A stretch of DNA of 64,000 bases from a bacterium (GTDB lineage: Archaea > Thermoplasmatota > E2 > JACPAO01 > JAHFTW01): contig JAZJZE010000009.1 of NCBI GenBank assembly GCA_040390065.1, positions 96,001-160,000 on the forward strand, read 5' to 3'. Position numbers and translations under genes: made by a program. Below, in pieces: positions 20,756-64,000 of this stretch (positions are counted from its first letter, which is position 1; every line of letters begins with the position of its first letter). The notes under the pieces were generated by a model. The model saw only the letters and a program-made list of their open reading frames with translations, did not search any database and had not been told where the DNA came from.

Positions 20756-20981
20756 AGTGCACAGTTCGGGATTTGGCGGCCCGGTGCCAAGCACCGGCCC
20801 GTAACCACGCGCCACGGCGCCAGGCAAACCCAAGCGGGCCCTAGCTCGCTTCGCTCGCAGTGCACCGTTCGGGATTTGGCGGCCCGGTGCCAAGCACCGG
20901 CCCGTAACCACGCGCCACGGCGCCAGGCAAACCCAAACGGGCCCTAGCTCGCTGCGCTCGCAGTGCACCGTTCGGGATTTG
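20756..20981. repeat. tRNA-linked tandem repeat with 103-bp period; each unit carries the tRNA-Gly 3' end
   Basis: AGTGCAC(C/A)GTTCGGGATTTG at 20756, 20859 and 20962; the intervening sequences are near-identical. Confidence 0.93.
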
Positions 20982-21034
20982 AACCCGAGCTGACAGCTTG
21001 GAAGGCTGAAGTCATACCCCTAGACCAACGGTGC
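20964..21034 (-). tRNA. tRNA-Gly(TCC), no encoded CCA
   Basis: Reverse complement GCACCGTTGGTCTAGGGGTATGACTTCAGCCTTCCAAGCTGTCAGCTCGGGTTCAAATCCCGAACGGTGCA folds as a cloverleaf with anticodon TCC. Confidence 0.95.
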
Positions 21035-21223
21035 GGGCAAGGTCGCCGACACCGGCCCGGTCTTTGAGTGCATCGGCACGCAATGGCGGCGCGGACACGG
21101 TACTGAAGTTGGGGTTCCTTCAGGCAACTGAAGAGACCTCCAGAACCCTGCGCTGCACCGGCGGCCGTCCGATTTCGCCCATCCCCCGGCAGGCCTCATG
21201 CGGCGCAGCGTCATGGGTGGCGT

Positions 21224-21391
21224 ATGTCGAATCCGCCGTGGATGGTGACGCTCGTGGTGCCTGCGGAGTTGCGGGAGCGGCTCGAGGAAAGGAAGTTGCA
21301 CCGGCGCCAGCCGTTTCATGAGGTGATCCGGCTGGCTTTGGATGTGGCAGAGGAGAGGTTGCCGTCGCAGAGGCTGGACCCGCCGTTGTAG
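21224..21391 (+). CDS. Small ribbon-helix-helix-like protein (55 aa, not in ORF track)
   Basis: MSNPPWMVTLVVPAELRERLEERKLHRRQPFHEVIRLALD... has a beta-helix-helix pattern like archaeal RHH proteins. Confidence 0.6.
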   Translation: MSNPPWMVTLVVPAELRERLEERKLHRRQPFHEVIRLALDVAEERLPSQRLDPPL

Positions 21392-21392
21392 G

Positions 21393-23852
21393 TTAGGCGG
21401 CCTTGGCGCCGCGCTTCTTGGCCGGTTTTGCCACGACCTCTTCGTCGGTGGCTTCGTCCTTCTTGCCTTTGCTCTTCTCGGTGCGGATGTTGGAGGGGCA
21501 TCCCATGTTGATGCAGATGTCCCATGGCTTGCGGCCTTTGGTGATGACGAGGACGCGGGGCGCGCTGCAGGTCGGGCAGACGACGCCGTCGTACTGGATG
21601 GCGCCGCGCTGGGGGAGCGGGTATGTCTGGGCGCCGCGTTCGTCGGCTTTGCAGTCGGCGTTGTCGCACTTGACGTAGCGTTTGAAGTTGCGGCTGCGTG
21701 TGACTTGCAGCGTGCCTTTCTTGCACGTTGGGCAGGTGCCCAGGGCCATCTTCTCGGCCTCGACGGCCGCTTGCCTTGTTGGGCATTCGCCGTTGACGCA
21801 GAATTCCTGCTTGCGGCCGCGGTCGTCGTGCAGCATGTAGGGGGCGCCGCAGGTTGCGCAGGGTTCGTCCCGGAACTCGATGCGGCCGCGGACGGGGAGG
21901 TTGTATGTGACGCGGCAGTCGGGGTAGCCTTTGCAGCCGATGAACTGGCCGCCGAAGCGGTTTTGGCGCACGATGAGTTGTTTGCCGCAACTCGGGCAAC
22001 TGCCGGCGTCGGCGTCTTCGTCGAGGGCGATGCGGACGGCGCTGCCGATTGCGTCCTTGTGTTCCAGGAGCGTGTCGATGACCCCATGCAGGAGTGTCCG
22101 TGAGTCTCCCAGCGTCTCGTCGAGGCTGCGCTTGCCGTCGGCGATCTGGTCCATCTCGTCTTCGAGTTGCTTGGTCATGTCGGCGCGCGTGATGCGGCCG
22201 GCGTGTTCTTCGAGGGCCGCCGTCACCGCGAAGCCGACGACCGTCGGCGCCACGGGGCTTTCCGTGATGTAGTTGCGGTCGATGAGTTTCTGGATCATGT
22301 CGTGGCGGGTGGCCTTCGTGCCGATGCCGAGTTCTTCCATTTTCGCGATGAGGCTGCCCTGGCCGAAGCGGCTTGGCGGCTGGGTCTCCTTGGCGTGGAC
22401 GCGGACGTCCGTGACGGGGAGGACCTGGCCCCCCTTGACGGCGGGAAGGGGCCGCTCGTCCGGGGCGGCGTATGGGTACACTTGGCGCCAGCCGGCAAAC
22501 AGCGTGACTTGGCCCGTCGTGCGTAGGGGCTCGCCGCCGGCGTCGAAGCGGATGGTCGTTTGTTGCACGCGTGCGTCGGGGCTGAGGGTTGCGAGGAAGC
22601 GGCGGGCGATGAGTTCCCATACCTTGCGGCCTTGCTCGTCGACCTTTGCGTCGGGTCCAGGGACGGCGGTCGGGTAGATGGGCGGGTGGTCCGTCGTCTC
22701 TTTTTTGCCGCGGGTCGGCGTCTCGCGCCGGTTCTTCGCGACCCATTTTGCGTCGGCTGCGGTCGGGCCGCGCTGTAGCATGGTGACGAGCTCGGCGAGG
22801 TCGAGTGTGGGTGGGTAGACGGTGTTCTCGGTGCGGTGGTAGGAGATGAAGCCGTCGAGGTACAGTCGCTGTGCGATGTCCATGGCGCGCTTGACGCCCA
22901 TGCCGAAGCGGCTCGAGCATTCGGCTTGGAACGTCGTCGTGCTAAACGGCGAGGGCGCGCGCGCAGTGCGCTCCTTGCCTTCCACGGAGAGGACCTTCGC
23001 CTTGCCGGCCTTGCGGATGGCGTCGCGCGCCTTGTCCGCCTCCTTGCCGTTCTGGAACTTGCCCTCGAGGGAGAAGCCCTTCTCCTCGTCGGAGTCCTCG
23101 GCCTTGGTGGTCTTGTAGCCGGATTTCTCGTGGTGCGCCAGGACGCAGACGGGTGCAGCGTCCAAGTCGGCCTCGACCTCCCAGTAACCTTGCGGCATGA
23201 AGGCGAGGCGCTCCTTCTCGCGGTCGACGACGAGTCCAAGGGTCGGCGTCTGGACGCGGCCCACGGACAGGAAGCCGCGGCCGCGGCGACCGCCGGCCAC
23301 GGAGAGGTAACGCGTCAAGGCGGCGCCCCATGCGAGGTCGATGATTTGCCGGGCCTCGCCGGCTTGGGCGAGCTTGTAGTCCACGTCCTGCAGGTGGGTA
23401 AAGGCGTCGCCGACCTCCTTGGCGGTGAAGCTGGAGTACTTGGCGCGACGGATCTCCTTGCCTTTGAGGGCGGTGCCGAGGGCCTCGAGCGCCTCGACGC
23501 CGATGAGTTCCCCTTCGCGGTCGTAGTCCGTCGCGACGATGATGCGGTCGGCCAGCTTGGCTGCGGCGACGAGGGATTTGACGATGGCTTCCTCGGTGAC
23601 GGCCTTCTCGACGGGGGCGTCGATGAGGGCGTGCAGCTTCGGCGGGTCGAGCGTCCAACGGCTGTGACCCTTCGCGAAGTCGAGTTCGACGATGTGTCCG
23701 CGCAAGCCGATGACCGTCGCGGGTCCGCCGCCCCATTCCATGTCGTAGGCGGGCACGCCGGCACCGCGGCGCTGTTTGGCCTTGCCGCCGGAGAGCGCCT
23801 TGGCAATCTGCTTGGCGGCATCGTTCTTCTCGCAGATAATGAGCGTCTTCAT
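21393..23852 (-). CDS. topA: DNA topoisomerase I (type IA) with C-terminal zinc ribbons
   Basis: IICEK, ATDYDREGE, SVGRVQTPTL, catalytic ISYHRT, GIGTKATR, several C4 ribbons. Confidence 0.96.
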   Translation of the reverse strand: MKTLIICEKNDAAKQIAKALSGGKAKQRRGAGVPAYDMEWGGGPATVIGLRGHIVELDFAKGHSRWTLDPPKLHALIDAPVEKAVTEEAIVKSLVAAAKLADRIIVATDYDREGELIGVEALEALGTALKGKEIRRAKYSSFTAKEVGDAFTHLQDVDYKLAQAGEARQIIDLAWGAALTRYLSVAGGRRGRGFLSVGRVQTPTLGLVVDREKERLAFMPQGYWEVEADLDAAPVCVLAHHEKSGYKTTKAEDSDEEKGFSLEGKFQNGKEADKARDAIRKAGKAKVLSVEGKERTARAPSPFSTTTFQAECSSRFGMGVKRAMDIAQRLYLDGFISYHRTENTVYPPTLDLAELVTMLQRGPTAADAKWVAKNRRETPTRGKKETTDHPPIYPTAVPGPDAKVDEQGRKVWELIARRFLATLSPDARVQQTTIRFDAGGEPLRTTGQVTLFAGWRQVYPYAAPDERPLPAVKGGQVLPVTDVRVHAKETQPPSRFGQGSLIAKMEELGIGTKATRHDMIQKLIDRNYITESPVAPTVVGFAVTAALEEHAGRITRADMTKQLEDEMDQIADGKRSLDETLGDSRTLLHGVIDTLLEHKDAIGSAVRIALDEDADAGSCPSCGKQLIVRQNRFGGQFIGCKGYPDCRVTYNLPVRGRIEFRDEPCATCGAPYMLHDDRGRKQEFCVNGECPTRQAAVEAEKMALGTCPTCKKGTLQVTRSRNFKRYVKCDNADCKADERGAQTYPLPQRGAIQYDGVVCPTCSAPRVLVITKGRKPWDICINMGCPSNIRTEKSKGKKDEATDEEVVAKPAKKRGAKAA

Positions 23853-24073
23853 GGCCGATTCGCGGCAGCGACCGGCGATTCCGGGTGCCGCGGCGCGGCC
23901 GAGGCTGGGAGTCCTTGAAATGGCTTTGCCATGATGCATGAACGTGCCACCCCCTACGGGGGTGACGCCGGGACGGCGTCGGCGGCGCGCCTGCGGGCCG
24001 ACCCGCCGGCGGGCCGGCAGGGGGCTCGGCGAAGTCCCCAAATAGTCCCCGACTTTCGAAGGAGCGGTCGGTT

Positions 24074-24481
24074 ATGGACGAGGTGGACCGCCAGATTGTT
24101 GCGCTTCTACGGCAAAACGCGCGTGAATCGTTCACGCGGATTGCCGAACAGGTCGGGACGTCGGAGGGGACCGTGCGGGCCCGCGTGAAGCGCCTCACGG
24201 ACGATGGCACGATCCGCCAGTTTACCATCCGCACCGCTGGCTCGCACGTCAAGGCCCTGGTCGAAGTGAGCGTCACGGCCAACGTCCACTCGAACGAGAT
24301 CGCGAAGAAGATCCGCACCTGGCCTGGCGTCGACGCCGTCTGGGAAGTGACGGGCGACAACGACATCATGGTCGTCGCCGACTGCCCCAGCACGGAGGAC
24401 TTGAACGGCATCATCGACAAGATCCGCGACGTGCCGGGGACGCAGGCGACGCGCAGCCGGCTCATCCTCAAGGAGCATTGA
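24074..24481 (+). CDS. Lrp/AsnC family transcriptional regulator
   Basis: MDEVDRQIVALLRQNARESF...SEGTVRARVKRL HTH plus RAM domain (EVTGDNDI). Confidence 0.93.
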   Translation: MDEVDRQIVALLRQNARESFTRIAEQVGTSEGTVRARVKRLTDDGTIRQFTIRTAGSHVKALVEVSVTANVHSNEIAKKIRTWPGVDAVWEVTGDNDIMVVADCPSTEDLNGIIDKIRDVPGTQATRSRLILKEH

Positions 24482-25237: not shown

Positions 25238-25284
25238 GTCCGCCCCGATGCCTCGTCGCTGGATGAGGCCGTCGTCCGCGCACG

Positions 25285-33495: not shown

Positions 33496-33594
33496 GTGTG
33501 GGGGGCCTCAGAGAACGGGAGCAGAACGGAGAACAGGAACCCATTCCCCTTCTCTCCGTGGCATTCCTGTTCTCCCAGCCCGCCCTAGCTCAGG
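33491..33594. repeat. Palindromic element starting at the glyS stop
   Basis: CCTGAGTGTGGGGGC...GAGAAC repeats / GTTCTC...GCCC...CTCAGG. Confidence 0.6.
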
Positions 33595-39057: not shown

Positions 39058-39207
39058 ATGGCCCCCGACCCCAAGATGGACGTCAACCGCGGCGACAAGG
39101 CCGCCGCCGAGCGCCTTGCGATGCTGAAGGAGTTGGCCAAGATGACGAAGCCCACCGGCGCCTCGGCCAAGGGCAAGGCCGTCGAGAAGCCGGACGAGGA
39201 CGAATAG
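39058..39207 (+). CDS. Small protein (49 aa, not in ORF track)
   Basis: MAPDPKMDVNRGDKAAAERLAMLKELAKMTKPTGASAKGKAVEKPDEDE with strongly host-like codon usage; fills the gap exactly. Confidence 0.6.
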   Translation: MAPDPKMDVNRGDKAAAERLAMLKELAKMTKPTGASAKGKAVEKPDEDE

Positions 39208-39208: not shown

Positions 39209-40465
39209 CTAGGCCGGATACCGTAGCGGCTTGCACTCGCTCTTCGTGGTGCCGTCGTTCCACGTGTACGTGCCGCACTCGATGACGCCCCGCGCCTGGA
39301 ACGTCAGGTGCACCTGCGCCGTGCGGTCGGCCATCTGCGACGGCACTTGGCCGACCTCCACGCGGACGGCCGTGCCGCCCACCAGCGCCTCGTCCTGGAG
39401 CTCCCATGTGCCGTCCGCGCCGCCGGCGCCGTCCAGCCGCACCCAGCCCGCTGGCGTCTCGATCCAGAAGTGCACGAACGGCTGTGGGCCTGCACCATCG
39501 ACGCGCGCCTCGAGGCGGCTCGTGTTCTGCGGGGCAACCATGGCATCGGTCGTTCCATTGCGTTGCGGCGACACGATGTACAGTGCGCCGTCGCCCTTGA
39601 CGGTCAGGGGCGCCGTCACGTTTTGCAGGGGCACCCAGACGTACGTCCCGGTGCCTGCGTATGCGGGGGCCGGCTGCGAGGGGCTCAGGATTCCTGCCTG
39701 CACGAGGGTCACGACCACGGCGATGGCAGCCATGGCCAAGCCGAGGACGATGGTGCGCCGTCGGCTCGTCACGTCGGGCGGCAAGGGCTGGCCCTTGACC
39801 TGTGCGCGCGGGGCGGGTGCTTCGGTGTCGCGCCGCATGAGGTAGGCCGCAACGAAGACGGCGCCGAAGAAGCCGATGAACAGCGTGGGGATGGCCCACG
39901 GCGGCCAGGAAGGGCGTCCCGACATGGCGAGGCCGACGATGCCGACGAGGCCCATGGCGCCGTAGAGGACCATGCCGCCGCGCCAGCCCGGAGCCAAGCG
40001 GTCGCGGAAGCGGTACGCGGCAAGAGGGCCGACGAGTCCCATCCACATGAGCGAGCCGAAGAGCCACCACTGCGTCGAGTCCGGGCGCTCGTGCGACGTC
40101 AAGGCCACGATGGCACTGGCCCATCCCGCCGCGAGGACTGGGGCGCCAATCGCCGCGAAGATGGCGATGCGTTGCCAGAGCGGGAGGCGCGGGCCGTCAA
40201 CCGTGTCGTTGGGGTCCTGCTGCGGCGCGTTGGAGGCGGGAGACGCGGTCTCGGGGTTGGCGAGGGCCGCGGCGCGCTCGCGCAGGTTGCGCCGAATGAC
40301 CCAGACGGCGAAGGCCAAGCAAGCGACGCCCAGGACGAGCGCGCCGAGGCCCAGCTTCCAGTCGCCTCCGAGGACAAGGTTTGCAACGCCGGCCACCGTC
40401 GCGACGACCCCCAGGTAGAGGTTGCGCATCGGCAATCGCGTCCAGAACCCGGGCGGCTTCTCCAT
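39209..40465 (-). CDS. Multi-TM protein with extracellular C-terminal domain
   Basis: About 7 hydrophobic segments, then a beta-rich domain with a C-terminal Cys pair. Confidence 0.72.
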   Translation of the reverse strand: MEKPPGFWTRLPMRNLYLGVVATVAGVANLVLGGDWKLGLGALVLGVACLAFAVWVIRRNLRERAAALANPETASPASNAPQQDPNDTVDGPRLPLWQRIAIFAAIGAPVLAAGWASAIVALTSHERPDSTQWWLFGSLMWMGLVGPLAAYRFRDRLAPGWRGGMVLYGAMGLVGIVGLAMSGRPSWPPWAIPTLFIGFFGAVFVAAYLMRRDTEAPAPRAQVKGQPLPPDVTSRRRTIVLGLAMAAIAVVVTLVQAGILSPSQPAPAYAGTGTYVWVPLQNVTAPLTVKGDGALYIVSPQRNGTTDAMVAPQNTSRLEARVDGAGPQPFVHFWIETPAGWVRLDGAGGADGTWELQDEALVGGTAVRVEVGQVPSQMADRTAQVHLTFQARGVIECGTYTWNDGTTKSECKPLRYPA

Positions 40466-40523
40466 CCTAGACGGCTCCAACCACGGGCCGCCCAGTGGGC
40501 CAGCGGTTCTTGGAGGTTGTGCC

Positions 40524-40632
40524 TCAGTATGTCCTGGCAAACCGCAGCGTGTCCTTTGCCTGCTTGGCGCAGACGGCGCACGCGGCTGGCGCGAAGGCCT
40601 CGTCGACGGGGACGCCGAGCGTCTTGATGTCC
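40524..40632 (-). pseudogene. Duplicate of the proS 3' end (last 35 codons plus stop)
   Basis: 100/109 nt identical to 41167-41275; encodes DIKTLGVPVDEAFAPAACAVCAKQAKDTLRFARTY*. Confidence 0.93.
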
Positions 40633-40634
40633 CG

Positions 40635-40733
40635 CGACCTGCAAACAGGTCGATCATTTGCGTCGTGCTGCCTCGCTGCGCTCGGCACCACATAGCGTCG
40701 GGGGGCTGCCGCCCCCCGCCCGTGTCCCCCCGC
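40635..40733 (-). repeat. About 100-bp structured repeat, copy 1
   Basis: Reverse complement matches 47416-47515; ends in the CGACCTG-TTTG-CAGGTCG hairpin. Confidence 0.88.
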
Positions 40734-40777
40734 CGGGGGGCCTGCCGGCCCCCGCGACCCCCAGCAGCCGCTGGATC

Positions 40778-41167
40778 CTACGCCCAAGTCGCTGCGGGGC
40801 GGGGCAACAAGCGCATCACGGATTCGTCATCGCTTCGGGGAAAACGCGTTTCAGCGATGTCAAGGGCGGTCGGCTCGTCGTGCGGTGTCTCGTACGCGAA
40901 ATCCGACCAGACGACTTCGTCCCCAACCTGCGCCACGAGGGCCGCAAGGGCACCGCATCCTTCGTGGCCGCACAAGCCACACGTCGTAATCGTGGTTCGG
41001 CCCGACTTGAATGTAGGGCGTTCGAGAGGGACCCGGAACCAGACAAGGAGCTCGCCGTCGCGGAGCGGTCGCCCGTCAATGACGAAACGCCAAGCCGTCC
41101 GGTCCGGTCGCTCCACGCTGTCGGCCGTTGGGAACGTGTCGGTGTTCGGGACGAGCGCCAGCTGCAT
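40778..41167 (-). CDS. Hypothetical protein with CxxC-x4-C motif (cargo)
   Basis: ATG overlaps the proS TAA; TCGLCGHEGCGAL...DEVVWSDF. Confidence 0.7.
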   Translation of the reverse strand: MQLALVPNTDTFPTADSVERPDRTAWRFVIDGRPLRDGELLVWFRVPLERPTFKSGRTTITTCGLCGHEGCGALAALVAQVGDEVVWSDFAYETPHDEPTALDIAETRFPRSDDESVMRLLPRPAATWA

Positions 41168-42621
41168 TAGTAGGTCCTTGCAAACCGCAGTGTGTCCTTT
41201 GCCGGCTTGCTGCAGACGGCACACGCGGCTGGCGCGAAGGTCTCGTCGACGGGGACGCCGAGCGTCTTGATGTCCAGCGTCTTCTCGACGTTGGCCGCGC
41301 ATTCCGTTCCGCAGATGGGCATGGTGAGGATGTAGCCGACGTTGGCCTTCTGCCCCTCGTCATCGAGGCGCTTGGCCTCGTCGAGGGACTTGGGATGCTT
41401 GATGCGCGTCGCAACGAAGGCGGCTTGTTTGTCGAGGAGCGTTTTCTGGATGCTGGCCAGGACGTCCTTGACGCCTTGCTCCAGGTGGTCCATCGGAATG
41501 GCCTTCTTGCCCTCGCGGCCCATGTCGCGGCGGGCGCTGAAGACGGATTTCTTCTCGACGTCCTTGGGGCCGACTTCGAGGCGCAACGGGACGCCGCGCA
41601 GTTCCCAGTGGTAGTACTTCTCGCCGGCCGCCTTGGCGCGTTCGTCCAGTTCGACGCGGAAGCCCGCGAGGTCCAGCCGGTCGCGCACCGTCTTGCACGC
41701 CGCGAGGACGGCTTCCTCGCTGCCCTTGAAAACCACGGGGACGATGACGACTTGGATGGGCGCGATGTCCGGCGGCATCACCAGGCCGTTGTCGTCGCCG
41801 TGACACCCGACGACGGCACCGACGAGGCGTTCGCTCATGCCGTACGTCGTCTGGTGGCAGAGCTTGTGGCCCTCCGTCTCGGACTCGTACTTCATGTCGT
41901 ACGCCTTGGCAAAGTTCGTGCCGTAGTAGTGCACGGTGGCGCATTGCAGCGTGCGGCCGCTTGGCATGACGACGTCGGCGCCCGTGGAGTCGACGGCGCC
42001 GGGGAACTTGTCCCAGTCCGGCCGCTTCGAGTACAGCGCGGGGAGGGCGAGTTTGGCGTAGACGTGGCGCACGATGTCGAGGTCGAGCGCGACGTGCTCG
42101 CGGGCCGTCTTCTCGTCGGCGAAGACCGAGTGGTCCTCGAAGAAGTGGATCTCCCGAACGCGCATGAAGGCACGCGTCTGCTTCGTCTCGTACCGGAAGA
42201 CGTTGCAGATCTGGTACGTCGTCAGCGGCAGGTCGGAGTGGCTGCGGATCCACAGCGGGAAGATCTCGTACATGGCGCACTCCGACGTGGGGCGCACGAT
42301 CCAGCGCTCGCCTTCCGGCAGTTCGTTGTCGCCGGCATGCGTGACCCAGAAGACCTCGGAGCCGAAGCCCTTGATCTGGTCGGCCTCCTTCATGAAGAGC
42401 TTCTCGGGGATCATGAGGGGGAAGGAGACCTCGTCGTGGTGCGTGCGGCGCATCTCGGCGCGCGTGTAGTCGTCGATGGCCGACATGATGCGTTGGCCGT
42501 AAGGCCGCCAAATGTTCATGCCCTTGATGGGGTACCGCTTGTCCGTGAGTTCGGCGACCTCGACGACCTCATTGTACCACTCCATGAAGTCCTTCGACTT
42601 GGGGACCTGGGTCGCGGGCAT
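41167..42621 (-). CDS. proS: Proline--tRNA ligase (archaeal/eukaryotic type)
   Basis: EWYNEV, VRPTSE, FRYETK..FMRVREI, TTYGMSER, WELRGVPLRLEVGP, terminal FARTY. Confidence 0.96.
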   Translation of the reverse strand: MPATQVPKSKDFMEWYNEVVEVAELTDKRYPIKGMNIWRPYGQRIMSAIDDYTRAEMRRTHHDEVSFPLMIPEKLFMKEADQIKGFGSEVFWVTHAGDNELPEGERWIVRPTSECAMYEIFPLWIRSHSDLPLTTYQICNVFRYETKQTRAFMRVREIHFFEDHSVFADEKTAREHVALDLDIVRHVYAKLALPALYSKRPDWDKFPGAVDSTGADVVMPSGRTLQCATVHYYGTNFAKAYDMKYESETEGHKLCHQTTYGMSERLVGAVVGCHGDDNGLVMPPDIAPIQVVIVPVVFKGSEEAVLAACKTVRDRLDLAGFRVELDERAKAAGEKYYHWELRGVPLRLEVGPKDVEKKSVFSARRDMGREGKKAIPMDHLEQGVKDVLASIQKTLLDKQAAFVATRIKHPKSLDEAKRLDDEGQKANVGYILTMPICGTECAANVEKTLDIKTLGVPVDETFAPAACAVCSKPAKDTLRFARTY

Positions 42622-42645
42622 GTTGACCCTGCGACTATGGAGATG

Positions 42646-42655
42646 GATAAAAGCG
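42646..42655. promoter_or_regulatory. TATA-like box, possibly bidirectional (proS and candidate ncRNA)
   Basis: GGATAAAAGC (CTTTTAT on minus) about 30 nt from both the proS ATG and the structured region at 42680. Confidence 0.45.
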
Positions 42656-42679
42656 GGGCGGCGCGGCACGCGCAGCAAA

Positions 42680-47316: not shown

Positions 47317-47415
47317 TTGCAAGGCCGCTCGTCAGGCGCCCCTCGGTGGTGGGCACTCGTCCGTGCGAGCGCAAGGCGCGAGCGTAGCGGGGGCGAGGGA
47401 CGCGCAAGCGCCCCC

Positions 47416-47515
47416 GCGGGGGGACATGGGCGGGGGGCCGAGCCCCCCGCCGCTATGTGGCGCCGCAGAACAGCGGCGGCGCCACGACGCAACTGATCGA
47501 CCTGTTTGCAGGTCG
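47416..47515 (+). repeat. About 100-bp structured repeat, copy 2
   Basis: Matches the reverse complement of 40635-40733. Confidence 0.88.
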
Positions 47516-49384: not shown

Positions 49385-50161
49385 TCATGTGCGTGGCGGA
49401 CGCGGCACTGCGGCCTTGGAAAGGAAGGCCTGCACCCGCCGCTTCGACTCTTCGCGTGCGTGCAACGACACGAATTCGTCCACCTCCATGGCAAGGCCGC
49501 GCTGGTAATCAACCGTCACGGCGGCGTGAAGGGCGCGCTTCGCGGCCGCCACGGCGACCGGGTCTTGGGCCGCCATGCGCGAAGCCATGGCCACGGCCGA
49601 AGGCAGGACCGTTTCAGGGGAAAGCACGATGTCGACCAAGCCAAGGATTTGCGCTTCGGCCCCGTCGACAGCGTGCCCCGTGAACACGAGACGACCGGCG
49701 TGGCTTCGACCGATGAGGCGTACCAGTCGCTGCGTTCCCCCGCCTCCTGGAATCAAGCCGAAGGAGATTTCCGGCTGACCCAGCCGGGCCGCGGCACTGC
49801 AGGCCCGCCAATCGCAAGCCGTCGCGAGTTCGAGGCCGGCTCCGAGGGCATCCCCGTTGATGGCCGCGATGACGGGCTTGCGCAGCCCTTCGATGACTGA
49901 GTAGATGTGCGGCGGCTGCAGGAAGGCGGCTTGCTGCTCGCTGGTGCGCGCCGCAAGTTCCCCGAGGTCGGCGCCAGCGGCGAAGGCAGAGCCTGCCCCC
50001 GTGATGACGATGGCGCCGACGCTCGCGTCGTTTTCCGCTTCGTGCAGGTTTGCAATGAGTTCGAGGCGCAAGGCGGCGCTGAGGGCGTTGCGCTGCTCGG
50101 GACGGTTGAGGGTGAGGATCCGGACGCGCCCTTCGTCCTTCGACAAGACCAAACCACTCAT
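49385..50161 (-). CDS. Enoyl-CoA hydratase (PaaF-like)
   Basis: AFAAGADL, ALGAGLE, QPEISFGLIPGGGGTQRL. Confidence 0.92.
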   Translation of the reverse strand: MSGLVLSKDEGRVRILTLNRPEQRNALSAALRLELIANLHEAENDASVGAIVITGAGSAFAAGADLGELAARTSEQQAAFLQPPHIYSVIEGLRKPVIAAINGDALGAGLELATACDWRACSAAARLGQPEISFGLIPGGGGTQRLVRLIGRSHAGRLVFTGHAVDGAEAQILGLVDIVLSPETVLPSAVAMASRMAAQDPVAVAAAKRALHAAVTVDYQRGLAMEVDEFVSLHAREESKRRVQAFLSKAAVPRPPRT

Positions 50162-51042
50162 GACAATCGTCGCTCCATGGGTTTTCCCGTCGACCAGTCG
50201 TAGATTCCTTTGCCGGACTTCTTGCCGACCTCGCCGCGCTCCACGAGGCGACGCGCGAAGGCGGGGCTGTCGAACTGCGATCCGCCGAGTTCGCGCTTGA
50301 GATAGTCGCTGATGGCAAGGCGGACGTCGAGTCCCACGAGGTCGGACAATTCGAGCGGGCCCATCGGGTGGCCGTAGCCGAGACGCATCGCCGTGTCGAT
50401 GTCGCTGGCCGAGGCGACGCCGGATTCGAGCATGCGCATGGCCTCGTTGCCAAGCACGATGCCCAGGCGGCTCGTGGCAAAACCGGGAACGTCCTTGGCG
50501 ACGATCGTGGTCTTGCCGAGCCGGTCGCCGACCGCGCGGGCCGCGGCGACGGTGGCGTCGGAGGCGGCGTCGTGGCGGACAATCTCGAGGAGTTTCATGA
50601 GCGGCACCGGATTGAAGAAGTGCATGCCGACGACGGCCTGCGGCCGCTTCGTGGCGGCGGCGATCTGGGCGATGCTGAGACTTGACGTGTTCGTGGCGAG
50701 GACCGCGTGCGGGGGCGCCCATCGGTCCGCGTCCCGGAAGACGTCCTGTTTGAGGGCCATGTTCTCGGGGACGGCTTCGATCACGAGGTCGCTCTTGGCA
50801 AGCGCGTCGCGCAGCGGGGTCTTGGCGTCGAGGTTCGCGGTCCACGCATCCCGCTGCGCCGTCGTGGTCTTGCCCTTGGCGATGCCCGCGGCCCAGAACT
50901 CCTCGATGCGCGCGACGCCCCTGGCCAGCCCGGCCGGGATGGCGTCGTGCAGGTAGGTGTAGTACCCGGCTTGGGCGCACACTTGCGCGATGCCCGCGCC
51001 CATCGTGCCGGCGCCGACGATGGTGACGGTCTTGACGTCCAT
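50158..51042 (-). CDS. 3-hydroxyacyl-CoA dehydrogenase (PaaH/Hbd-like)
   Basis: GAGTMGAG, EAVPE, NTSSL, GMHFFNP, PMGPL. Confidence 0.94.
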   Translation of the reverse strand: MDVKTVTIVGAGTMGAGIAQVCAQAGYYTYLHDAIPAGLARGVARIEEFWAAGIAKGKTTTAQRDAWTANLDAKTPLRDALAKSDLVIEAVPENMALKQDVFRDADRWAPPHAVLATNTSSLSIAQIAAATKRPQAVVGMHFFNPVPLMKLLEIVRHDAASDATVAAARAVGDRLGKTTIVAKDVPGFATSRLGIVLGNEAMRMLESGVASASDIDTAMRLGYGHPMGPLELSDLVGLDVRLAISDYLKRELGGSQFDSPAFARRLVERGEVGKKSGKGIYDWSTGKPMERRLS

Positions 51043-51080
51043 CGGGGGCCGCGAGGGCGCAACCCGGTGAAAGGCTTGCC

Positions 51081-51695
51081 TCAGCTCAGGTCGAAGTGCG
51101 TCGTCCCCGTGACGGTGTCCATGCCGTTCACCGTCGGCCCCGTCGCCTTCAGGGTCGCCGCCAAGGTGAAGGAGATGGTCCCGGGGATGGCGGTGAGGTC
51201 GAACTCGATGGGGCTGTCGCCTGTTGCCGACCCCATGGCGTTGCCGTCCGCATCGGCGACGCTGAAGGTGTTCGTGACGGCGGCGCTGCTTGGGGGGGCC
51301 CCGGAGAACGTTGCCTTCGCGTGCCCCTTCGTGAAGGGACCGCCCGTGCTCGACGAGATGTCGGGGCTCGTGCAAGTGAGCGTGACGCTTGGCCCCGCAA
51401 AGGTCTGGCCGCCGCCGGCAAAGGTGCATTCGACGCTGACGGGTGCCGGCGCGCCCTTCGTCGCGTTGGCGGGCGGGGCGGACGTGGTCGTCGTCGTGGA
51501 GGACGTGGACGAGGAACTTGAACTGGGAGTCGTGCTCGGTGGCTGCGTCGTGGTCGTGGTGGATGGCGCGTCCGACGTTCCGGGGTGGCCGGGGTTGGTG
51601 GCTCCAGGCTCCGACGAGGACCCTGTGCCGGGGCTGCTGGAGCTGCAGCCCGCCAGGACGAGGGCACCAAGCAACGCGATGAGGACGATACGCAT
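51081..51695 (-). CDS. Ser/Thr-rich lipoprotein
   Basis: LVLAGC lipobox; poly-Ser/Thr linker; beta-rich domain. Confidence 0.8.
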   Translation of the reverse strand: MRIVLIALLGALVLAGCSSSSPGTGSSSEPGATNPGHPGTSDAPSTTTTTQPPSTTPSSSSSSTSSTTTTTSAPPANATKGAPAPVSVECTFAGGGQTFAGPSVTLTCTSPDISSSTGGPFTKGHAKATFSGAPPSSAAVTNTFSVADADGNAMGSATGDSPIEFDLTAIPGTISFTLAATLKATGPTVNGMDTVTGTTHFDLS

Positions 51696-51731
51696 GGGCG
51701 GGCGCCAAGCCTGGCCCCCTATGAGCGTTGT

Positions 51732-51767
51732 GTCAGGCCTTGCGGAAATCCGGTTTGCGGCGCGCGA
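51732..51767 (-). repeat. Exact 36-bp duplicate of the 3' end of the enoyl-CoA hydratase gene at 52568
   Basis: GTCAGGCCTTGCGGAAATCCGGTTTGCGGCGCGCGA is identical to 52567-52602. Confidence 0.95.
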
Positions 51768-51781: not shown

Positions 51782-52531
51782 TCACAGGCCTGCCGCCCGG
51801 GAAACGGGCTTCACGCACCTGAAGTCGAGGAGCTGCGTCGTCGAGGTGTTTCCACTCGCGTCCGTCCACACCGTGCGCACGGGGCCGCAAGCTGCCGGGG
51901 CGTACCAGGTCGTCATCGTGCGTTGGAACGTCGGGGTGTCCCACGAGGAGATCTCGGTCACGATCTTGAACGCCGCAAACGTCCCGGCCGGTACGGACAC
52001 CATCTCGCTGCCGACGACGTGGGCGTCCTGCTGCACGTGCCACCCCGCGGCCGGGCCGCGCGAGTCATGAAGCGTACAGGCGTCCGTCCACGCGGCCCCG
52101 ACCCGCAGCGGCCAATGGCGATCTGGGCACGGCGGCGAATAGACGCGGGTCTGCGGGGGGCCCCCGGCGGATGAGCGCTCCTCGAGGTTGGCGTCGTCCG
52201 ACACGCGTTGCCACTTCACGCTGTGGATGGCCGTGTGGGTTCCGTCCCCAGGCTGCCGGTCGATGTCGGTCTGCACACGGGCCGCCGCGTAGGTCGTCCC
52301 GAGGACCGTCCAGTTCTCGAGGGCCATGACCGTGATTTGCGCGTCGTCGCGCATGTCGTTGTACTGGGGATTCGTCTCGATTTCGGATTCGTGCCAGGAA
52401 TCGCCCACCGTGCGGTCCGGGGCTGCCGCGTCCGGCATCACAACCGTCGCGACTTGGCTTTCGCGATGCCCGGTGCAACCCGCCGACGCTGCCGTTGCCA
52501 GAGCGAAACATGCGAGGGCGACGAGCTTCAT
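51782..52531 (-). CDS. Lipoprotein with VSVPAGTF beta domain (cargo)
   Basis: SAGC lipobox; EMVSVPAGTFAAFKI...TWYAP..G.V. Confidence 0.78.
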   Translation of the reverse strand: MKLVALACFALATAASAGCTGHRESQVATVVMPDAAAPDRTVGDSWHESEIETNPQYNDMRDDAQITVMALENWTVLGTTYAAARVQTDIDRQPGDGTHTAIHSVKWQRVSDDANLEERSSAGGPPQTRVYSPPCPDRHWPLRVGAAWTDACTLHDSRGPAAGWHVQQDAHVVGSEMVSVPAGTFAAFKIVTEISSWDTPTFQRTMTTWYAPAACGPVRTVWTDASGNTSTTQLLDFRCVKPVSRAAGL

Positions 52532-52567
52532 GGCCGGGCCTACTTTCCTGCCTTCAAAACCATTCGG

Positions 52568-53350
52568 TCAGGCCTTGCGGAAATCCGGTTTGCGGCGCGC
52601 GAAGAAGGCGTCGCGCCCCTCGGCGTGCTCACGCGTGAGGAAGGCTGCAGCTTGCAGGTGCGCCTCGCGCTCCAAGGCTTCGGGGAGCGGCGCCTCGGCG
52701 TTGAGTTGCAAGGCGCGCTTGGACAGGGCGAACGTCGCCGCGGGACCCTCGGCGAGGGCGGCAGCCAGGTGCGCGACGGCGCCGGCCAGCTGTTGTGGCG
52801 GCACGGCTCGCAGCACGAGGCCCCACGCCACGGCGTCCTGCGCGGAGAACGGCGCCGCCGTCCAGGCGAGGTGCTTGGCCCGCTGCAGTCCGAGGCGGCG
52901 CGGCAGCAGCCACGTCGCACCGGTATCAGGGATCAAGCCGACATGCCGAAAACTCAGGGAGAATTGGGCGTCTTCGGCGACGATGGCGAGGTCGCACTGG
53001 AACGCTAGGATAGCGCCAGCCCCGTAGGCGTTCCCCTGCACCTGCGCGATGACGGGTTTGGGCAAGTCGTGCAACGCGAGGACGACCCGGTTGAGGCCGG
53101 TGCGCAGGCGGTGCAGGGTGGCCTGGGCATCGCCCGCAAACTCGCGCATGACTTGGATGTCGCCGCCGGCCGAGAACATGTCGCCGGCCGCCGCCACCAC
53201 GACGACCCGGACGTCTGCATCGTCGCGGGCCGCCTCGAGCGCTTCTGCCAGCTGGCCGAGGGTATCCAGGTCGAGGGCGTTCTTCTTCTCGGGACGCGAC
53301 AAGGTCAGGGTGAGGATGCCCGCGTCGAGACGGGAAGCCAGCGCTGCCAC
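52568..53350 (-). CDS. Enoyl-CoA hydratase/isomerase
   Basis: FSAGGDI, AYGAG, GLIPDTG; start inferred. Confidence 0.9.
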   Translation of the reverse strand: MAALASRLDAGILTLTLSRPEKKNALDLDTLGQLAEALEAARDDADVRVVVVAAAGDMFSAGGDIQVMREFAGDAQATLHRLRTGLNRVVLALHDLPKPVIAQVQGNAYGAGAILAFQCDLAIVAEDAQFSLSFRHVGLIPDTGATWLLPRRLGLQRAKHLAWTAAPFSAQDAVAWGLVLRAVPPQQLAGAVAHLAAALAEGPAATFALSKRALQLNAEAPLPEALEREAHLQAAAFLTREHAEGRDAFFARRKPDFRKA

Positions 53351-60279: not shown

Positions 60280-61397
60280 GCCGCCTTCGCCGCGATCCAT
60301 TCCTGCTTGAAGCACTCGGCCAGCACGGCGTCGTCCTCCTTGAGCGGCAACTGTGCGGCGAGGTAGTCCGCGTAGGCGCCCTTGCCCTTCCAGGGCTGGC
60401 CGTCAATCGTGACTTCGGCGCCGACGTCGGGGCCGATGGCGCGGTGGAAATTCGCGACGGGCACGACGAGGCGCGCGGCGCCGTCCGGCAGGGACTTGTT
60501 GATGATGTCGACCTCGCGCACGATTTCCTGGCGGTACAGTTCGCGCGCCATCTGGTTGAGGAGATTCTTGTCGGGGACGTCCTGGTGGTCCGCCTCGTCG
60601 TAGCGGCCCTTCAAGCCCCACACGTACGCCCACTCGGAACTCGTGCTGCCGTCCTTGCCGAAGAGGTCGTACGCCGTCGGGATCCAGCGGTTGAAGCTGC
60701 GCTGCAGGACGGGGATGGGGACGACGCCGGACTTGACGATGCGGCGGAGTCCGTTGGAGCCCGTTCCGAGGTGGAAGGCCTCCTCCTTCAGCATCGGGCC
60801 CATGGACGCGGCCAGCGGCTTGAAGGCGGAGGTGGAGAGCATCTTGAGTTGGAACTTGCCGTCGCGGTCGACGAACATGGTGAAGACGAAGAAGTCCAGC
60901 CAGTTCTTGGTGGGCTCGTTGAATGAACCGAGCAGACGCGTCTGTTCGTTGGCGTCGCGCTGCAGCAACTTCTGGGCTTCGCGGGCGCCTTGTTCGCCGA
61001 AGTGCTCGACGAGCAGGTGGCACATCTGCCAGCCGTGGCGTTGCTCCTCGGCCATGATGCGCAATGCAGATTTCCTGTCGTACTCGGTCGGCGCCGAAGC
61101 GAGGAGGTGGCGCTGCTGTTCGACGGACGCGAACTCCGTGTCGCCTTGGACCGTGATGAGGTGCAGGAGCGCGTCGCGGATGTTCTGGTGCGGGATCTGC
61201 AATGGGCGCTCCCACTTCGGGCGGCCCTTGTAGTCGCCGAACTCGATGGCCGGATTCACGTTCTCGTAGTCGTACTTGGCCTCGAACTTGTAGTCGCCAA
61301 GCCACGCCGTGTCGAAGCCGACCTTCCTCTGCCAGTCCCCGAACTGCGCGACCCAGCCGTCGAAGTTGGCAGGCGGCGCTTGGGCGGTCCGTGTCAT
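60276..61397 (-). CDS. BoxB-like di-iron aryl-CoA epoxidase subunit (PaaA/BoxB family)
   Basis: QGDTEFASVEQQRHL, EEQRH, F.DRDGKFQL, EEAFH. Confidence 0.85.
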   Translation of the reverse strand: MTRTAQAPPANFDGWVAQFGDWQRKVGFDTAWLGDYKFEAKYDYENVNPAIEFGDYKGRPKWERPLQIPHQNIRDALLHLITVQGDTEFASVEQQRHLLASAPTEYDRKSALRIMAEEQRHGWQMCHLLVEHFGEQGAREAQKLLQRDANEQTRLLGSFNEPTKNWLDFFVFTMFVDRDGKFQLKMLSTSAFKPLAASMGPMLKEEAFHLGTGSNGLRRIVKSGVVPIPVLQRSFNRWIPTAYDLFGKDGSTSSEWAYVWGLKGRYDEADHQDVPDKNLLNQMARELYRQEIVREVDIINKSLPDGAARLVVPVANFHRAIGPDVGAEVTIDGQPWKGKGAYADYLAAQLPLKEDDAVLAECFKQEWIAAKAA

Positions 61398-61468
61398 CGG
61401 ATGATGGTTAGGTGTTGGCGGATATGAGGAGAGCGGTGGGACACTTCCTGGACTGGATGGGCTGGCTA

Positions 61469-61519
61469 AGTGTGGGCGGCCTAGGATTTCGGGGATTAAG
61501 CGGCGATGCTTGGGACTTG
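61469..61519. repeat. Left arm of the palindromic element
   Basis: Homologous to 6557-6606; reverse complement of 62340-62386. Confidence 0.85.
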
Positions 61520-61581
61520 TCCCCGAACGAATGATTGGGACGGCCACGAGATGCCCCTGTTGAACTGGCTGCGTTGGTGCA

Positions 61582-62190
61582 TTAGGATTGGGACAACTTC
61601 TGGCGACCGGCGGCGACCCACCAGCCTGCCAGGCCAACGAAGGCGAGGCCTGCGGCCGCGAGTGCGAGGAATAAGACGAACAGTACGCCGTGCGATAACT
61701 CGGGTCCTTGATTGTCGCTTGCTACCGACTCAAACAGTCGAAACGCCCCTACGCCAACGGCCAGTCCGAGCACTTGCAGGGACCAGAATCCACCCGTTTC
61801 GAATACGAGGGCCGCCCATGCCGCAGCACAGACAGTCGCCGCAAGAACGAGTGCCATTATCCCCAGTGCAACCTCAATCCCCGTCTCCAAACCACATAGG
61901 TCGAGAGCCCACCCGCCTTGCGGTTTGCCGCAGTGTTCCGGATGGGTCAACGCCCACCCGAATGAGAAGATGGCAAGAGCGACTAGAAGGGCGGCCTGAA
62001 ACCCGCCAACCCATGCGGCAGCCTTTGCCACCCTCCGATGACCGGCAACCCGCCGCGTGTGCAATGCTGTTCGCACCTCGGCCAACATCCATCCACACGT
62101 CGGGCACGCCAGACCGGTGAATGACCTGGAACAGGTTGCACACCAGGTCCGGGCGCTTGGGGGATGAACCGAGGCCGCTGCACTGCTCAT
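61582..62190 (-). CDS. Zinc-ribbon plus 4-TM hypothetical protein (cargo between inverted arms)
   Basis: CATC...CPTC then hydrophobic helices; lower GC than neighbours by eye. Confidence 0.65.
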   Translation of the reverse strand: MSSAAASVHPPSARTWCATCSRSFTGLACPTCGWMLAEVRTALHTRRVAGHRRVAKAAAWVGGFQAALLVALAIFSFGWALTHPEHCGKPQGGWALDLCGLETGIEVALGIMALVLAATVCAAAWAALVFETGGFWSLQVLGLAVGVGAFRLFESVASDNQGPELSHGVLFVLFLALAAAGLAFVGLAGWWVAAGRQKLSQS

Positions 62191-62339
62191 GGGCCTATAC
62201 CTCACACCAGGAAGCGTCCTCAAGGTTTCGGGGTCGCCGCAAGCCGGGGCCGTAGGCTGCGACTAAGCAGGCCCCCCGCACCCCTTCCTTCCCCTCACTT
62301 TCCAGAAGGCCATGGCTGCGTGCCCCACCGGGCGCGCTC

Positions 62340-62466
62340 CAAGTCCCAACAATCGCCGTTGGCATCCCCGAAATCCCAGGCCGCCCGACGCCTAGGGTTT
62401 CAAACCACTGAACTCACTGAACCCACTGAACGCCGTTTCAGTGAGTTCAGTGGTTTCAGTGGTTCG
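62340..62466. repeat. Right arm plus CACTGAAC 9-mer hairpin
   Basis: AATCGCCGTTGGCATCCCCGAAATCC identical to 6631-6656; 3x CACTGAAC / 3x TTCAGTG. Confidence 0.88.
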
Positions 62467-62487
62467 TCCGTCGTCGGCGTCGGAGGC

Positions 62488-62510
62488 CTAGGCGGCCTTC
62501 GCCATCTTGC
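62488..62510 (-). repeat. Duplicate of the desaturase 3' end
   Basis: CTAGGCGGCCTTCGCCATCTTGC versus CTAGACGGCTTTCGCCATCTTGC at 63109-63131 (21/23). Confidence 0.8.
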
Positions 62511-62583
62511 TCGTCGGTCGCCTTGCAGGCGGTGCCGCCTGACATGAGACGGGCCCTGGGGGACGGCGAAGTCGCCGCGCGAC

Positions 62584-63066
62584 CTACCGCCGGGCCGGGG
62601 GCGGAAGTGGCGGGCGCTGGGTGGCGGGCTGTCCGGGCGGGCGCGGCGTCTTGGCCGCGTTCTGCAGCGTCGCTGTCGGACGGGCGACCGGGGCGCGACC
62701 CCGTGTTTGTGCCGCCGGCTGCGTGGCTGCAAGCGGACCGCCTGGCATGCGTTGCAGGACGGCCGTCAGGTGCGCAGACAGGTCACGCGAGATGGTCGAG
62801 ATGGAGAGGCCGTACAGGGCGCCGCCGATTGCGCCGAAGGCCATGAAGGGCATCGCCCATGGAGCGGGTTGGGCCGTGACGGTGATTCGCGTGTCGTTCT
62901 TCTTGGCGCGGGCCTTGACGAAGACGTTGACGCGGGCCTTGCCATCACGGACCTTGAGCATGCGTTTTCCCTGGGCCTCCACGACGGCGCTCGCCGGCAG
63001 GGAGCCGCGCACGACGGCCGCCACGGCGGCGAGGTTAGCTAGACCGCGGACGAAGAACTTGGCCAC
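62584..63066 (-). CDS. Hypothetical basic protein with a hydrophobic segment (cargo)
   Basis: GTG start with a CCTTAT box about 27 nt upstream; host-like codons. Confidence 0.65.
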   Translation of the reverse strand: MAKFFVRGLANLAAVAAVVRGSLPASAVVEAQGKRMLKVRDGKARVNVFVKARAKKNDTRITVTAQPAPWAMPFMAFGAIGGALYGLSISTISRDLSAHLTAVLQRMPGGPLAATQPAAQTRGRAPVARPTATLQNAAKTPRPPGQPATQRPPLPPPARR

Positions 63067-63108
63067 GGTGGCCCTGACCCCCGCGTTGCAATAAGGGTTC
63101 CTTCCGGT

Positions 63109-64000
63109 CTAGACGGCTTTCGCCATCTTGCGCGCCTTGGCCTTGACGGCCCGCTTCTCGGCGCGCTCTTGCCTCGTCGGCATGTGGATCTTCTTGATCT
63201 GGCCGAGGGCCTGCAGGACGCGGATGGTGTACTTGCCGATGTCCACCTGGTACCAGCGCATGCCGATGAAGGCGGCGCGCGGGAAGGCATGGTGGTTGTT
63301 GTGCCAGCCCTCGCCCCAGCCGAGGAGGGCGACGGCGAAGTTGTTGGTGGCCTTGTCGTTGATGGCGAAGGGGCGCGTGCCGAACATGTGGCCGAGGGAG
63401 TTGACGCTCCACGTGATGTGGTGGCCGAGGAAGACGCGCACCAGACCGCCCCACAGGAAGCCGTCGGCGAAGCCCCAGAGGCCCCAGAGGGTGAATTGGG
63501 CGTGGCCGATGACGAGCCAGCCGATGAATCCCGGAATCAGGAGGCCGAGGGTGGCCCAGAGGACCCAGGTCTTGCTGACGAAGCGCGTCACGGGGTCGGC
63601 CATGAGTTTGTCGTGGGCGAGGCCGTTGCGGACGAAGCGGTCGCGCAGGAGCCAACCGAAGTGCGCGTGCCAGAAGCCTTCGAGGGGGCTGTGGGGGTCG
63701 CCTTCGCGGTCGGCTTTGGCGTGGTGGCGGATGTGGGTCGCGGCCCAGTCGGCGCACGGGCCCTGCATGGACATCGTGCCGGCAACGAGGAGCGCGAACT
63801 TCGTGGGGGCGCGGACGTCGACGGAGCGGTGGGTGAGCATGCGGTGGAAGCCGACGGAGATACCGAGGCCAGTGATGGTCCACATCGCCGCGAGGATGGT
63901 GAGCTCGAAGACGCCGACGTGGATGCCCCAGAACGACCACACGGCGAAGCCGAAGGCCAGCAGGGGGAGGATGACGAACGTCAGGACCAGGAGCTTGTTC
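63109..64000 (-). CDS. Acyl-CoA delta-9-type fatty acid desaturase (5' end outside window)
   Basis: His boxes HRMLTH, HIRHH, WHNNHH; DPHSP; frame is open to the window edge. Confidence 0.93.
   Translation of the reverse strand, partial: NKLLVLTFVILPLLAFGFAVWSFWGIHVGVFELTILAAMWTITGLGISVGFHRMLTHRSVDVRAPTKFALLVAGTMSMQGPCADWAATHIRHHAKADREGDPHSPLEGFWHAHFGWLLRDRFVRNGLAHDKLMADPVTRFVSKTWVLWATLGLLIPGFIGWLVIGHAQFTLWGLWGFADGFLWGGLVRVFLGHHITWSVNSLGHMFGTRPFAINDKATNNFAVALLGWGEGWHNNHHAFPRAAFIGMRWYQVDIGKYTIRVLQALGQIKKIHMPTRQERAEKRAVKAKARKMAKAV

Follow-up and report, generated by a model that had tools for sequence, protein, structure and literature searches.

Short inserts bounded by duplicated gene ends in a Thermoplasmatota genome

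Introduction

It is textbook biology that integrating elements duplicate gene ends, and toxin loci are known to have displaced 3' ends. The present analysis concerns an archaeal genome of the Thermoplasmatota (GenBank assembly GCA_040390065.1, here G000; 2.68 Mb in 50 contigs, 67% G+C, G+C at third codon positions near 0.85, 89% complete) and, within it, a stretch of 64,000 nt (contig JAZJZE010000009.1, positions 96,001 to 160,000, that is C9:96001-160000), which we call the window and whose own numbering is used unless a contig is named. Four genes of the window, encoding tRNA-Gly(TCC), prolyl-tRNA synthetase (proS), an enoyl-CoA hydratase (ECH) and a fatty-acid desaturase, have their 3' ends, all on the minus strand, repeated a short way downstream; the sequence between the copies is referred to as the insert, and the one at proS holds a 133-bp dispersed repeat, element E.

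Several described systems resemble these inserts in part. MITEs (miniature transposable elements with inverted repeats), REP elements and Rickettsia palindromic elements are likewise short, hairpin-rich, multi-copy, non-coding sequences that lie at or inside genes without destroying them. In contrast to these, element E has neither terminal inverted repeats nor a short target duplication of fixed length; one of its ends is constant and the other variable, and its flanking repeats measure 19-128 bp. The distal repeats of Escherichia coli tyrT (RtT RNA) are tandem units 3' of the tRNA gene, each ending in a copy of the tRNA 3' end, as do the units 3' of the tRNA-Gly gene described here, which differ in having no Rfam RtT match and in belonging to a pattern found at 22 tRNA loci and at protein genes.

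Displacement of C-terminal coding sequence has been proposed to occur at Rhs, contact-dependent inhibition (CDI) and type VI secretion system (T6SS) effector loci through homology-facilitated illegitimate recombination (PMC5361080). In that account, incoming DNA is anchored on the conserved part of a resident gene, whose former 3' end is moved downstream and orphaned, a further downstream gene is acquired and no recombinase is known, all of which is shared by the loci that we describe; there, however, the toxin domain specified by the incoming 3' end is a different one and the arrays have a role in immunity (PMC5361080), whereas here the incoming end would have the same sequence (often as a synonymous variant), the targets are tRNAs and housekeeping genes, and the payload is in most cases non-coding.

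Integrative elements, including tycheposons and their remnants, are bounded by attL and attR sites that are direct repeats of the target gene end, the incoming copy restoring the gene; repeats running from the T-arm to the 3' end of a tRNA, stacking at one site and payload genes between the repeats are further points of likeness (10.1101/2020.12.28.424599). Like such elements, the inserts in G000 have direct repeats of a terminal gene segment at both ends; unlike them, they are 60-800 bp long, contain no integrase, replication or excision gene and have no recombinase gene within or beside them, dozens of different targets are occupied within a single 2.7-Mb genome, among them the 5' ends of genes and ordinary protein genes, and one repeat family adjoins repeats that are unrelated to one another. 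It is this combination of small inserts, no recombinase in cis, many varied targets in one small genome, use of 5' ends, and payloads that include open reading frames (ORFs) without homologues (ORFans) that differs from the known systems. A limited literature search, covering long target-site duplications and archaeal MITEs at tRNA genes, did not find the architecture described, which does not show that it is unpublished.

Results

Four duplicated gene ends in the window

The repeat search of the window recovered all four duplications claimed in the initial annotation, at spacings of 643 (proS), 103 (tRNA-Gly), 835 (ECH) and 621 bp (desaturase); they are real and non-random, and they are not special to the window. 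Pfam matches (ProRS, ECH_1, FA_desaturase, and 3HCDH for a neighbouring gene) upheld the gene identities. In the following list and below, R2 denotes the working end of a gene and R1 the relic, that is, the displaced downstream copy of that end.

20963-21034, minus strand: intact tRNA-Gly(TCC) gene (ARAGORN; Rfam tRNA, 61.2 bits)
20722-20927, minus strand: two 103-bp tandem units 3' of tRNA-Gly (repeat search)
41167-42678, minus strand: proS, intact, archaeal-type prolyl-tRNA synthetase (Pfam tRNA-synt_2b, HGTP_anticodon, ProRS-C_1)
41163-41279, minus strand: proS R2, the functional last ~107 nt, the stop codon and ~4 nt
40778-41167, minus strand: cargoB, 129-aa ORF whose ATG overlaps the proS stop codon (TAATG)
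40635-40767, plus strand: copy of element E, 133 bp, in the proS interval; constant end CGACCTGCAAACAGGTCGATCA, 3 nt from R1
40520-40636, minus strand: proS R1, relic of the 3' end with its own TGA stop codon
52568-53440, minus strand: ECH gene, intact (Pfam ECH_1, E 3e-59); R2 at 52567-52602
51782-52531, minus strand: cargoC, 249-aa lipoprotein, DUF3108-like
51732-51767, minus strand: ECH R1, perfect 36-nt relic, 37 nt upstream of the lipoprotein gene 51081-51695
63109-64000, minus strand: fatty-acid desaturase gene, running off the window end; R2 at 63106-63134
62584-63066, minus strand: cargoD, 160-aa ORFan
62485-62513, minus strand: desaturase R1, relic in frame with its own TAG, adjoining a palindromic repeat at 62395-62470

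The paired copies are 117 nt long and 91% identical at proS, 36 nt and 100% identical at ECH, and 29 nt and 86% identical at the desaturase gene. At all three, the upstream copy holds the stop codon and the repeat ends 1-4 nt past it, and the relics of proS and the desaturase each keep an in-frame stop codon. At tRNA-Gly, the two 103-bp units end with a copy of the last ~20 nt of the tRNA (20756-20775 and 20859-20878; the gene's own end is 20962-20981), and a third, partial unit of 54 nt (20928-20981) extends into the gene. In our judgement, the tRNA itself is archaeal in appearance.

Each of the three protein-gene inserts was thought to enclose exactly one co-oriented orphan gene. One co-oriented ORF is indeed present in each, and it is missing from the locus in every relative compared (11 for proS, 11 for ECH and 12 for the desaturase), but the proS interval also holds element E. 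Protein searches covered 40 relatives (41 genomes with G000) and a database of 5.8 billion proteins. CargoB had no match in the relatives and a single, 58%-identical protein in the database, while cargoD matched only G000 itself among the 41 genomes and no other protein among the 5.8 billion. The best relatives of cargoC, found at other loci in 10 of the 41 genomes (G000 included), reach only 25-40% identity. The ECH insert of 799 bp amounts to about one gene, with 35 nt before the cargoC start and 14 nt after its stop.

It is scarcely credible that these repeats are an assembly artefact, with metagenome strain variants or graph cycles placed in series. In favour of an artefact, G000 is a metagenome assembly of 50 contigs with gaps of N, perfect 55-bp repeats border some N runs away from these loci, and a k=31 assembly of the run that is probably the source branches at the 36-bp ECH repeat. 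Against it, no N falls within any of the four loci, the copies at proS and the desaturase gene differ by 9-14% and have in-frame stops of their own, assemblies made independently for other species show this architecture as well, and the second assembly includes every junction k-mer. All four ECH-repeat junctions were found in that k=31 assembly, where the insert unitig has a depth of 9.3 and its flanks 13.1 and 12.3; at the level of contigs, the graph is compatible with the integrated form or with an empty site plus an 835-bp circle. Only the contigs of this one run contain the region, runs X2 and X3 holding fragments of relatives only. The perfect direct repeats of 55-89 bp at N runs (C1:249900-250222, C50:8788-8997 and C43:26465-26725) were rejected as biology; they are scaffolding overlaps.

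Gene-end copies across the genome

The last 123 nt plus 10 nt of each of 1473 protein genes were compared with the next 1.5 kb (score at least 17), with the reversed sequence and an internal segment of the gene as controls. Copies of the 3' end were found downstream of 28 genes, against 0 in the reversed control, which excludes chance as the cause; the internal-segment control gave 12, largely tandem paralogues. Gene 5' ends compared with upstream sequence gave 22 (internal control 16, reversed control 0).

Several 3'-end cases were set aside: six tandem paralogues (four genes on C4, C5:304246 and C21:20305), ribosomal P0/P1 (a shared acidic tail), C9:316597 and C13:18314 (tandem repeats in the 3' untranslated region) and, as doubtful, C1:3128. 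About 18 protein genes remained. Inserts range from 60 to 800 bp, most consisting of a hairpin-rich, non-coding repeat of 60-170 bp, and robust single-ORF inserts number four among the 1473 genes, namely those of the window (three) and, at C1:128859, a membrane ORF of 66 aa. A further two loci (C9:369728 and C10:37756) were not counted as robust, as the frame between the copies continues into the second copy; these loci may be adjacent genes that have a tail in common. The gene-carrying mini-cassette is therefore a rare form of a common event, and the proposal of a general, trans-acting way of appending single genes is not supported in that form: the event recurs, spares the gene and has no recombinase in cis, but it mostly delivers non-coding hairpin repeats and also duplicates 5' ends.

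The ends of 52 predicted tRNAs were compared with the 600 bp around them, and 23 predictions (22 loci) had a copy of one end at a score of at least 15, the maximum of 100 reversed controls being 13. In both classes, the outer boundary usually falls on the functional terminus. Among 3' copies of tRNAs, 11 of 17 have their end between -1 and +2 nt from the discriminator base and 14 of 16 start at tRNA positions 45-57; at the four robust single-ORF loci, the repeat ends at +4 (proS), +1 (ECH), +3 (desaturase) and -2 (C1:128859), counted from the stop codon. Stacked units occur at tRNA-Gly, tRNA-Thr and tRNA-Leu, and the same breakpoint nucleotide is used in different species at tRNA-Ser (G000 and G002) and at tRNA-Met (G000 and G012).

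Divergence of the paired copies

Differences between the copies at the 18 protein-gene loci at codon positions 1, 2 and 3 number 15/14/55, and the changed codons are synonymous in 51 cases and non-synonymous in 24. Third positions account for 65% of differences overall and for 67% in the five loci that contain element E (5/5/20), compared with an expectation, by our own estimate, of ~28/27/44% for a relic decaying after duplication in situ. Four loci together give 2/3/34; at one of these, the E-type insert C5:257126, the last three codons specify the same amino acids with different codons. Both copies have therefore diverged as working gene ends, under coding constraint, so that one copy of each pair would have to have been brought from another lineage together with the insert. 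The alternative raised in the initial annotation, recombination with the DNA of relatives anchored on the gene end, gains direct support from these mostly synonymous differences.

The third-position excess and the terminus-exact boundaries together argue against target-site duplication followed by decay. A plain staggered cut is disfavoured because the outer boundary of the repeat coincides with a functional terminus too often for a random stagger; that boundary fits an incoming copy, because homology between resident and foreign genes ends there. Two weaker observations suggest that the newcomer is the working copy. Where third positions differ, the working copy has A/T and the relic G/C in 23 cases and the reverse in 11; of the 10 sites that differ at proS, 6 have the genus-majority base in the relic and 2 have it in the working copy. 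The relics, for their part, stay joined to their native flank, with the anchor junction lying within homologous sequence: the ECH relic precedes a lipoprotein gene that is kept in G002, G004 and G007, and the desaturase relic adjoins a palindromic repeat of the kind found directly after the desaturase stop codon in relatives. Relatives could not serve to polarise the desaturase copies, owing to excessive variability of the C-terminal tail; in the comparison with G004, 3 sites agree with the working copy and 1 with the relic.

These data also bear on a purely local origin, in which replication slippage or unequal crossing-over between short repeats would have produced the pattern with no incoming DNA. 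Tandem arrays of more than two units do exist (tRNA-Gly, 103 bp x 2.5; tRNA-Ser, 208 bp; a 119-bp array on contig C5), and local direct repeats outnumber inverted ones, 298 to 26. Such processes, however, cannot yield synonymous divergence, and they leave the unique payloads unexplained, with cargoB, cargoC and cargoD lacking a close copy elsewhere in the genome; they can only amplify a repeat-insert-repeat unit that already exists, and the three protein-gene loci contradict them. Slippage can stack units, as at tRNA-Gly, but cannot supply payloads, and as a full account we regard a local origin as very unlikely.

Element E

Element E begins with a 7-bp hairpin followed by GATCA, and its core is GACCTGCAAACAGGTCGATCA. 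At no more than 4 mismatches, the core has 30 matches in G000, while five shuffled motifs gave 0, 0, 1, 0 and 0. Stem variants covary on both sides (CCTG/CAGG to CCTT/AAGG). Alignment of 15 copies shows a sharp shared start and variable far ends, with no terminal inverted repeats and no pair of defined ends. Of 13 genomes of the genus, 7 contain the core: G000 has 23 copies, G005 has 9, and the remaining five have 1-2 each (reversed control 0). The only Rfam family above the gathering threshold in the window was tRNA (no RF00391 match), and E gave matches at chance level only.

Direct repeats of 32-128 bp flank 12 of the 30 matches, the upstream copy ending 0-3 nt from the core; control scores for the upstream flank are at most 14 outside tandem arrays. 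The last base of the repeat is often C. The same layout is seen at 6 of 16 matches in G002, G005, G006 and G012. The flanking repeats are pieces of the local gene (tRNA halves, protein-gene 3' ends and one protein-gene 5' end), and in all 10 cases with an assignable gene, the intact gene lies on the side of the variable end and the truncated relic at the constant end. The proS locus matches this pattern exactly, with the addition of an ORF between element and gene.

Transposition of E, and perhaps of other repeats, by staggered cuts 20-130 bp apart would make the ORFs passengers and the gene ends merely tolerated sites, and long variable direct repeats are a known property of IS1634 and IS1549. 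The copy number of E and its distribution in the genus suit this explanation, as do the closeness of the repeats (many of them perfect) to the constant end, the lack of relationship among the repeat sequences and the variable truncation of the other end. We nevertheless consider it unlikely. It leaves unexplained the exact boundaries at tRNA ends and stop codons and the third-position excess, E-type loci included; E has no terminal inverted repeats; RVT_1, Y1_Tnp and TnpB gave no matches in the 89%-complete genome; neither of its two DDE_Tnp_1 genes is near any E copy; and the ECH and desaturase inserts contain no E core.

One further copy of E is present in the window:

47393-47515, minus strand: second window copy of element E, no flanking duplication

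Two other dispersed repeats were noted. The palindromic repeat of CACTGAA-like words (window 62395-62470 and 61460-61520; DNA fold z -6.2) has dozens of copies on both strands of G000 and related versions in other species, often immediately 3' of stop codons. A third repeat of ~185 bp, with more than 20 copies in G000 (window 33505-33585, that is C9:129505-129585; reference copy C9:83199-83382), sometimes directly adjoins the constant end of E.

Recombinases

The absence of integrases and transposases from the window, as originally claimed, holds for the families searched there (no PF00589 or PF00239 match), but not for the genome, which elsewhere has 6 Phage_integrase (tyrosine), 5 Resolvase (serine) and 2 DDE_Tnp_1 matches. 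The tyrosine and serine recombinase matches are located on C2, C4, C5, C11 and C49 and at C9:1766-2194, and none adjoins an E copy. No reverse transcriptase was found (PF00078, 0 matches in the 89%-complete genome; the control was positive in 3 of 14 reference genomes), nor any Y1_Tnp or TnpB match in G000, which at this completeness is not proof of absence. With 14-nt seeds, no long-range tRNA att pair was found bracketing an integrase gene.

Miniature non-autonomous integrative elements with a gene-end att site could be moved in trans by tyrosine or serine recombinases of the genome, a virus or a plasmid, the hairpin end of E then being a recombinase-binding arm. Repeats from the T-arm to the exact 3' end of tRNAs, with the boundary clusters described above, are the classic att pattern; stacked units and identical breakpoints in different species fit as well, an element-borne gene end would remain under coding selection, in keeping with the codon-position data, and candidate enzymes exist in the 11 recombinase genes. 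Partial tRNAs flanking integrated elements, and degenerate remnants of these, are described in the tycheposon preprint (10.1101/2020.12.28.424599). Set against this are the lack of a recombinase gene in the window or next to the E copies examined and of a long-range att pair around integrase genes, the more than 40 different target sequences, for which many specificities would be needed, the occurrence of the same E core beside unrelated repeats, and the shortness of the inserts, in which no remnants of integrase genes were apparent. This explanation is possible, though on balance we lean against it.

The two DDE_Tnp_1 proteins are paralogues of ~590-650 aa (C4:101803-102330 and C43:12106-12459), each preceded by a similar small, proline-rich membrane protein. 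The C4 gene lies near tRNA-Lys, a tyrosine recombinase and a serine recombinase, a region that is likely an integrated element.

The loci in related genomes

The nearest sampled relatives are ~74-85% identical at the proS, ECH and desaturase genes, and the ProS protein is 66-88% identical to those of 11 relatives. The sequence 3' of the proS stop codon differs in 11 of 11 relatives. Both the proS-downstream and the ECH-HCDH interval vary in length and content in nearly every species (11 relatives each), and the downstream sites of proS and ECH are hot spots. Neighbouring features of these loci are as follows.

39058-39207, plus strand: small gene (49 aa) in convergent orientation to proS, its DNA sequence conserved in several congeneric species
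39209-40693, minus strand: 494-aa open frame downstream of the proS relic, multi-pass membrane protein, no homologue at the locus in relatives
51081-51695: genus-conserved 204-aa lipoprotein gene, followed by HCDH at 50158-51042

Judged by its conservation, the 49-aa gene appears to mark the ancestral neighbour of proS, from which it is separated by ~2 kb in G000. The listed N-terminus of the 494-aa frame overlaps the proS relic in another frame, and its true start is probably further in. The 204-aa lipoprotein has homologues in the same place in G002, G004 and G007, where cargoC has none. The gap between ECH and HCDH measures about -10 to about 1500 bp in 10 genomes and usually contains, in relatives, 1-2 Ser/Thr-rich lipoprotein genes of two unrelated families. 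A 516-aa frame at 50158-51708 was rejected as a fusion, as the lipoprotein gene and HCDH are in different frames.

Extra copies of the tRNA-Gly end number two in G000 and three in G004, and none was found in G006, G007, G008 or G012 (five relatives searched). In G004, the closest relative, one of the extra copies (on C15) belongs to a near-complete second tRNA with ~60 nt inserted in the anticodon loop. In G008 (C4), an E-like core lies at most 4 nt past the intact tRNA-Gly(TCC) end, with no second end copy and in the orientation opposite to that of the duplicated cases; this may represent an insertion state without duplication. Several tRNA 3' inserts (for example window 20825-20927 and C1:345591-345733) have a segment of complementarity with the T-arm and with the 3' strand of the acceptor, with an alignment z of only ~2-2.7; changes in these segments are mostly C-to-T and A-to-G, so that G-U pairing in RNA would persist. 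Inverted copies of the repeat inside inserts were not significant at protein-gene loci (z at most 2.0) and weak at tRNA loci.

Discussion

The explanation that we favour, tentatively and as somewhat short of probable, is replacement-end insertion needing only host recombination anchored on the gene end, and no dedicated enzyme, a scheme already put forward for T6SS and Rhs loci with displaced 3' ends (PMC5361080). Replacement-end insertion is the geometry that we adopt, and the alternative of a tyrosine or serine recombinase acting in trans would share it. Short incoming DNA would begin with its own homologous copy of a gene's terminal segment, followed by a payload consisting of a hairpin repeat, an orphan ORF or both. 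It would recombine into the resident gene within the terminal segment, such that the incoming copy became the working end and the native one, still attached to its native flank, was left further downstream as a relic. Host homologous recombination could act at the anchor, either as a single crossover with a small circle or as one-sided recombination of a linear fragment, while at the other junction a hairpin base (that of the constant end of E, or of the tRNA T-arm) would be joined illegitimately. The repeat-payload-repeat unit could then be excised as a circle by looping out and insert again into that gene, in its own or a related lineage, and unequal crossing-over could stack units, as at tRNA-Gly. 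The data show the structure, its recurrence across the genome, the boundaries at gene termini and the divergence of the copies under coding constraint, whereas the direction of transfer, the circular intermediate and the enzymes are inferred.

Several points weigh against replacement-end insertion. Many repeat pairs are perfect or nearly so (ECH 36/36, others 39/39, 47/47 and 63/64), as a fresh target-site duplication would likewise predict, and a donor from the same population should usually recombine on both flanks, leaving no repeat. The E family lies beside many unrelated repeats, so that each copy would have had to gain its own gene-end segment, a founding event that the explanation leaves unaccounted for. 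The clustering of tRNA inner boundaries at positions 45-57, with the same nucleotide reused across species, looks site-specific, and no donor genome was found for any payload among the relatives and databases searched. The A/T versus G/C asymmetry reaches only about p 0.06, and the polarisation of proS comprises 10 sites. Finally, the window loci are themselves uninformative by codon position (ECH, 0 differences; proS, 2/3/4; desaturase, 1/1/1), and the codon-divergence argument extends to them by membership in the class.

That these inserts form an undescribed class in Thermoplasmatota, namely recombinase-less, hairpin-ended mobile modules of a few hundred bases that carry a spare gene end, insert harmlessly into tRNAs and essential genes, spread between lineages by homology, deliver ORFans and constitute a major route of gene gain, is a suggestion that we regard as doubtful. 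Small inserts with a spare gene end nonetheless look like a routine way for this lineage to gain DNA. The units of 621, 643 and 835 bp are short enough for direct tests of excision and re-insertion, and a second, synonymously diverged copy of a gene end provides a signature that can be sought in other genomes. If replacement-end insertion is correct, compact archaeal genomes with few classical mobile elements would gain orphan genes and repeats beside essential genes that remain undamaged, which would account for the species-by-species difference of the DNA just 3' of conserved genes in this genus.

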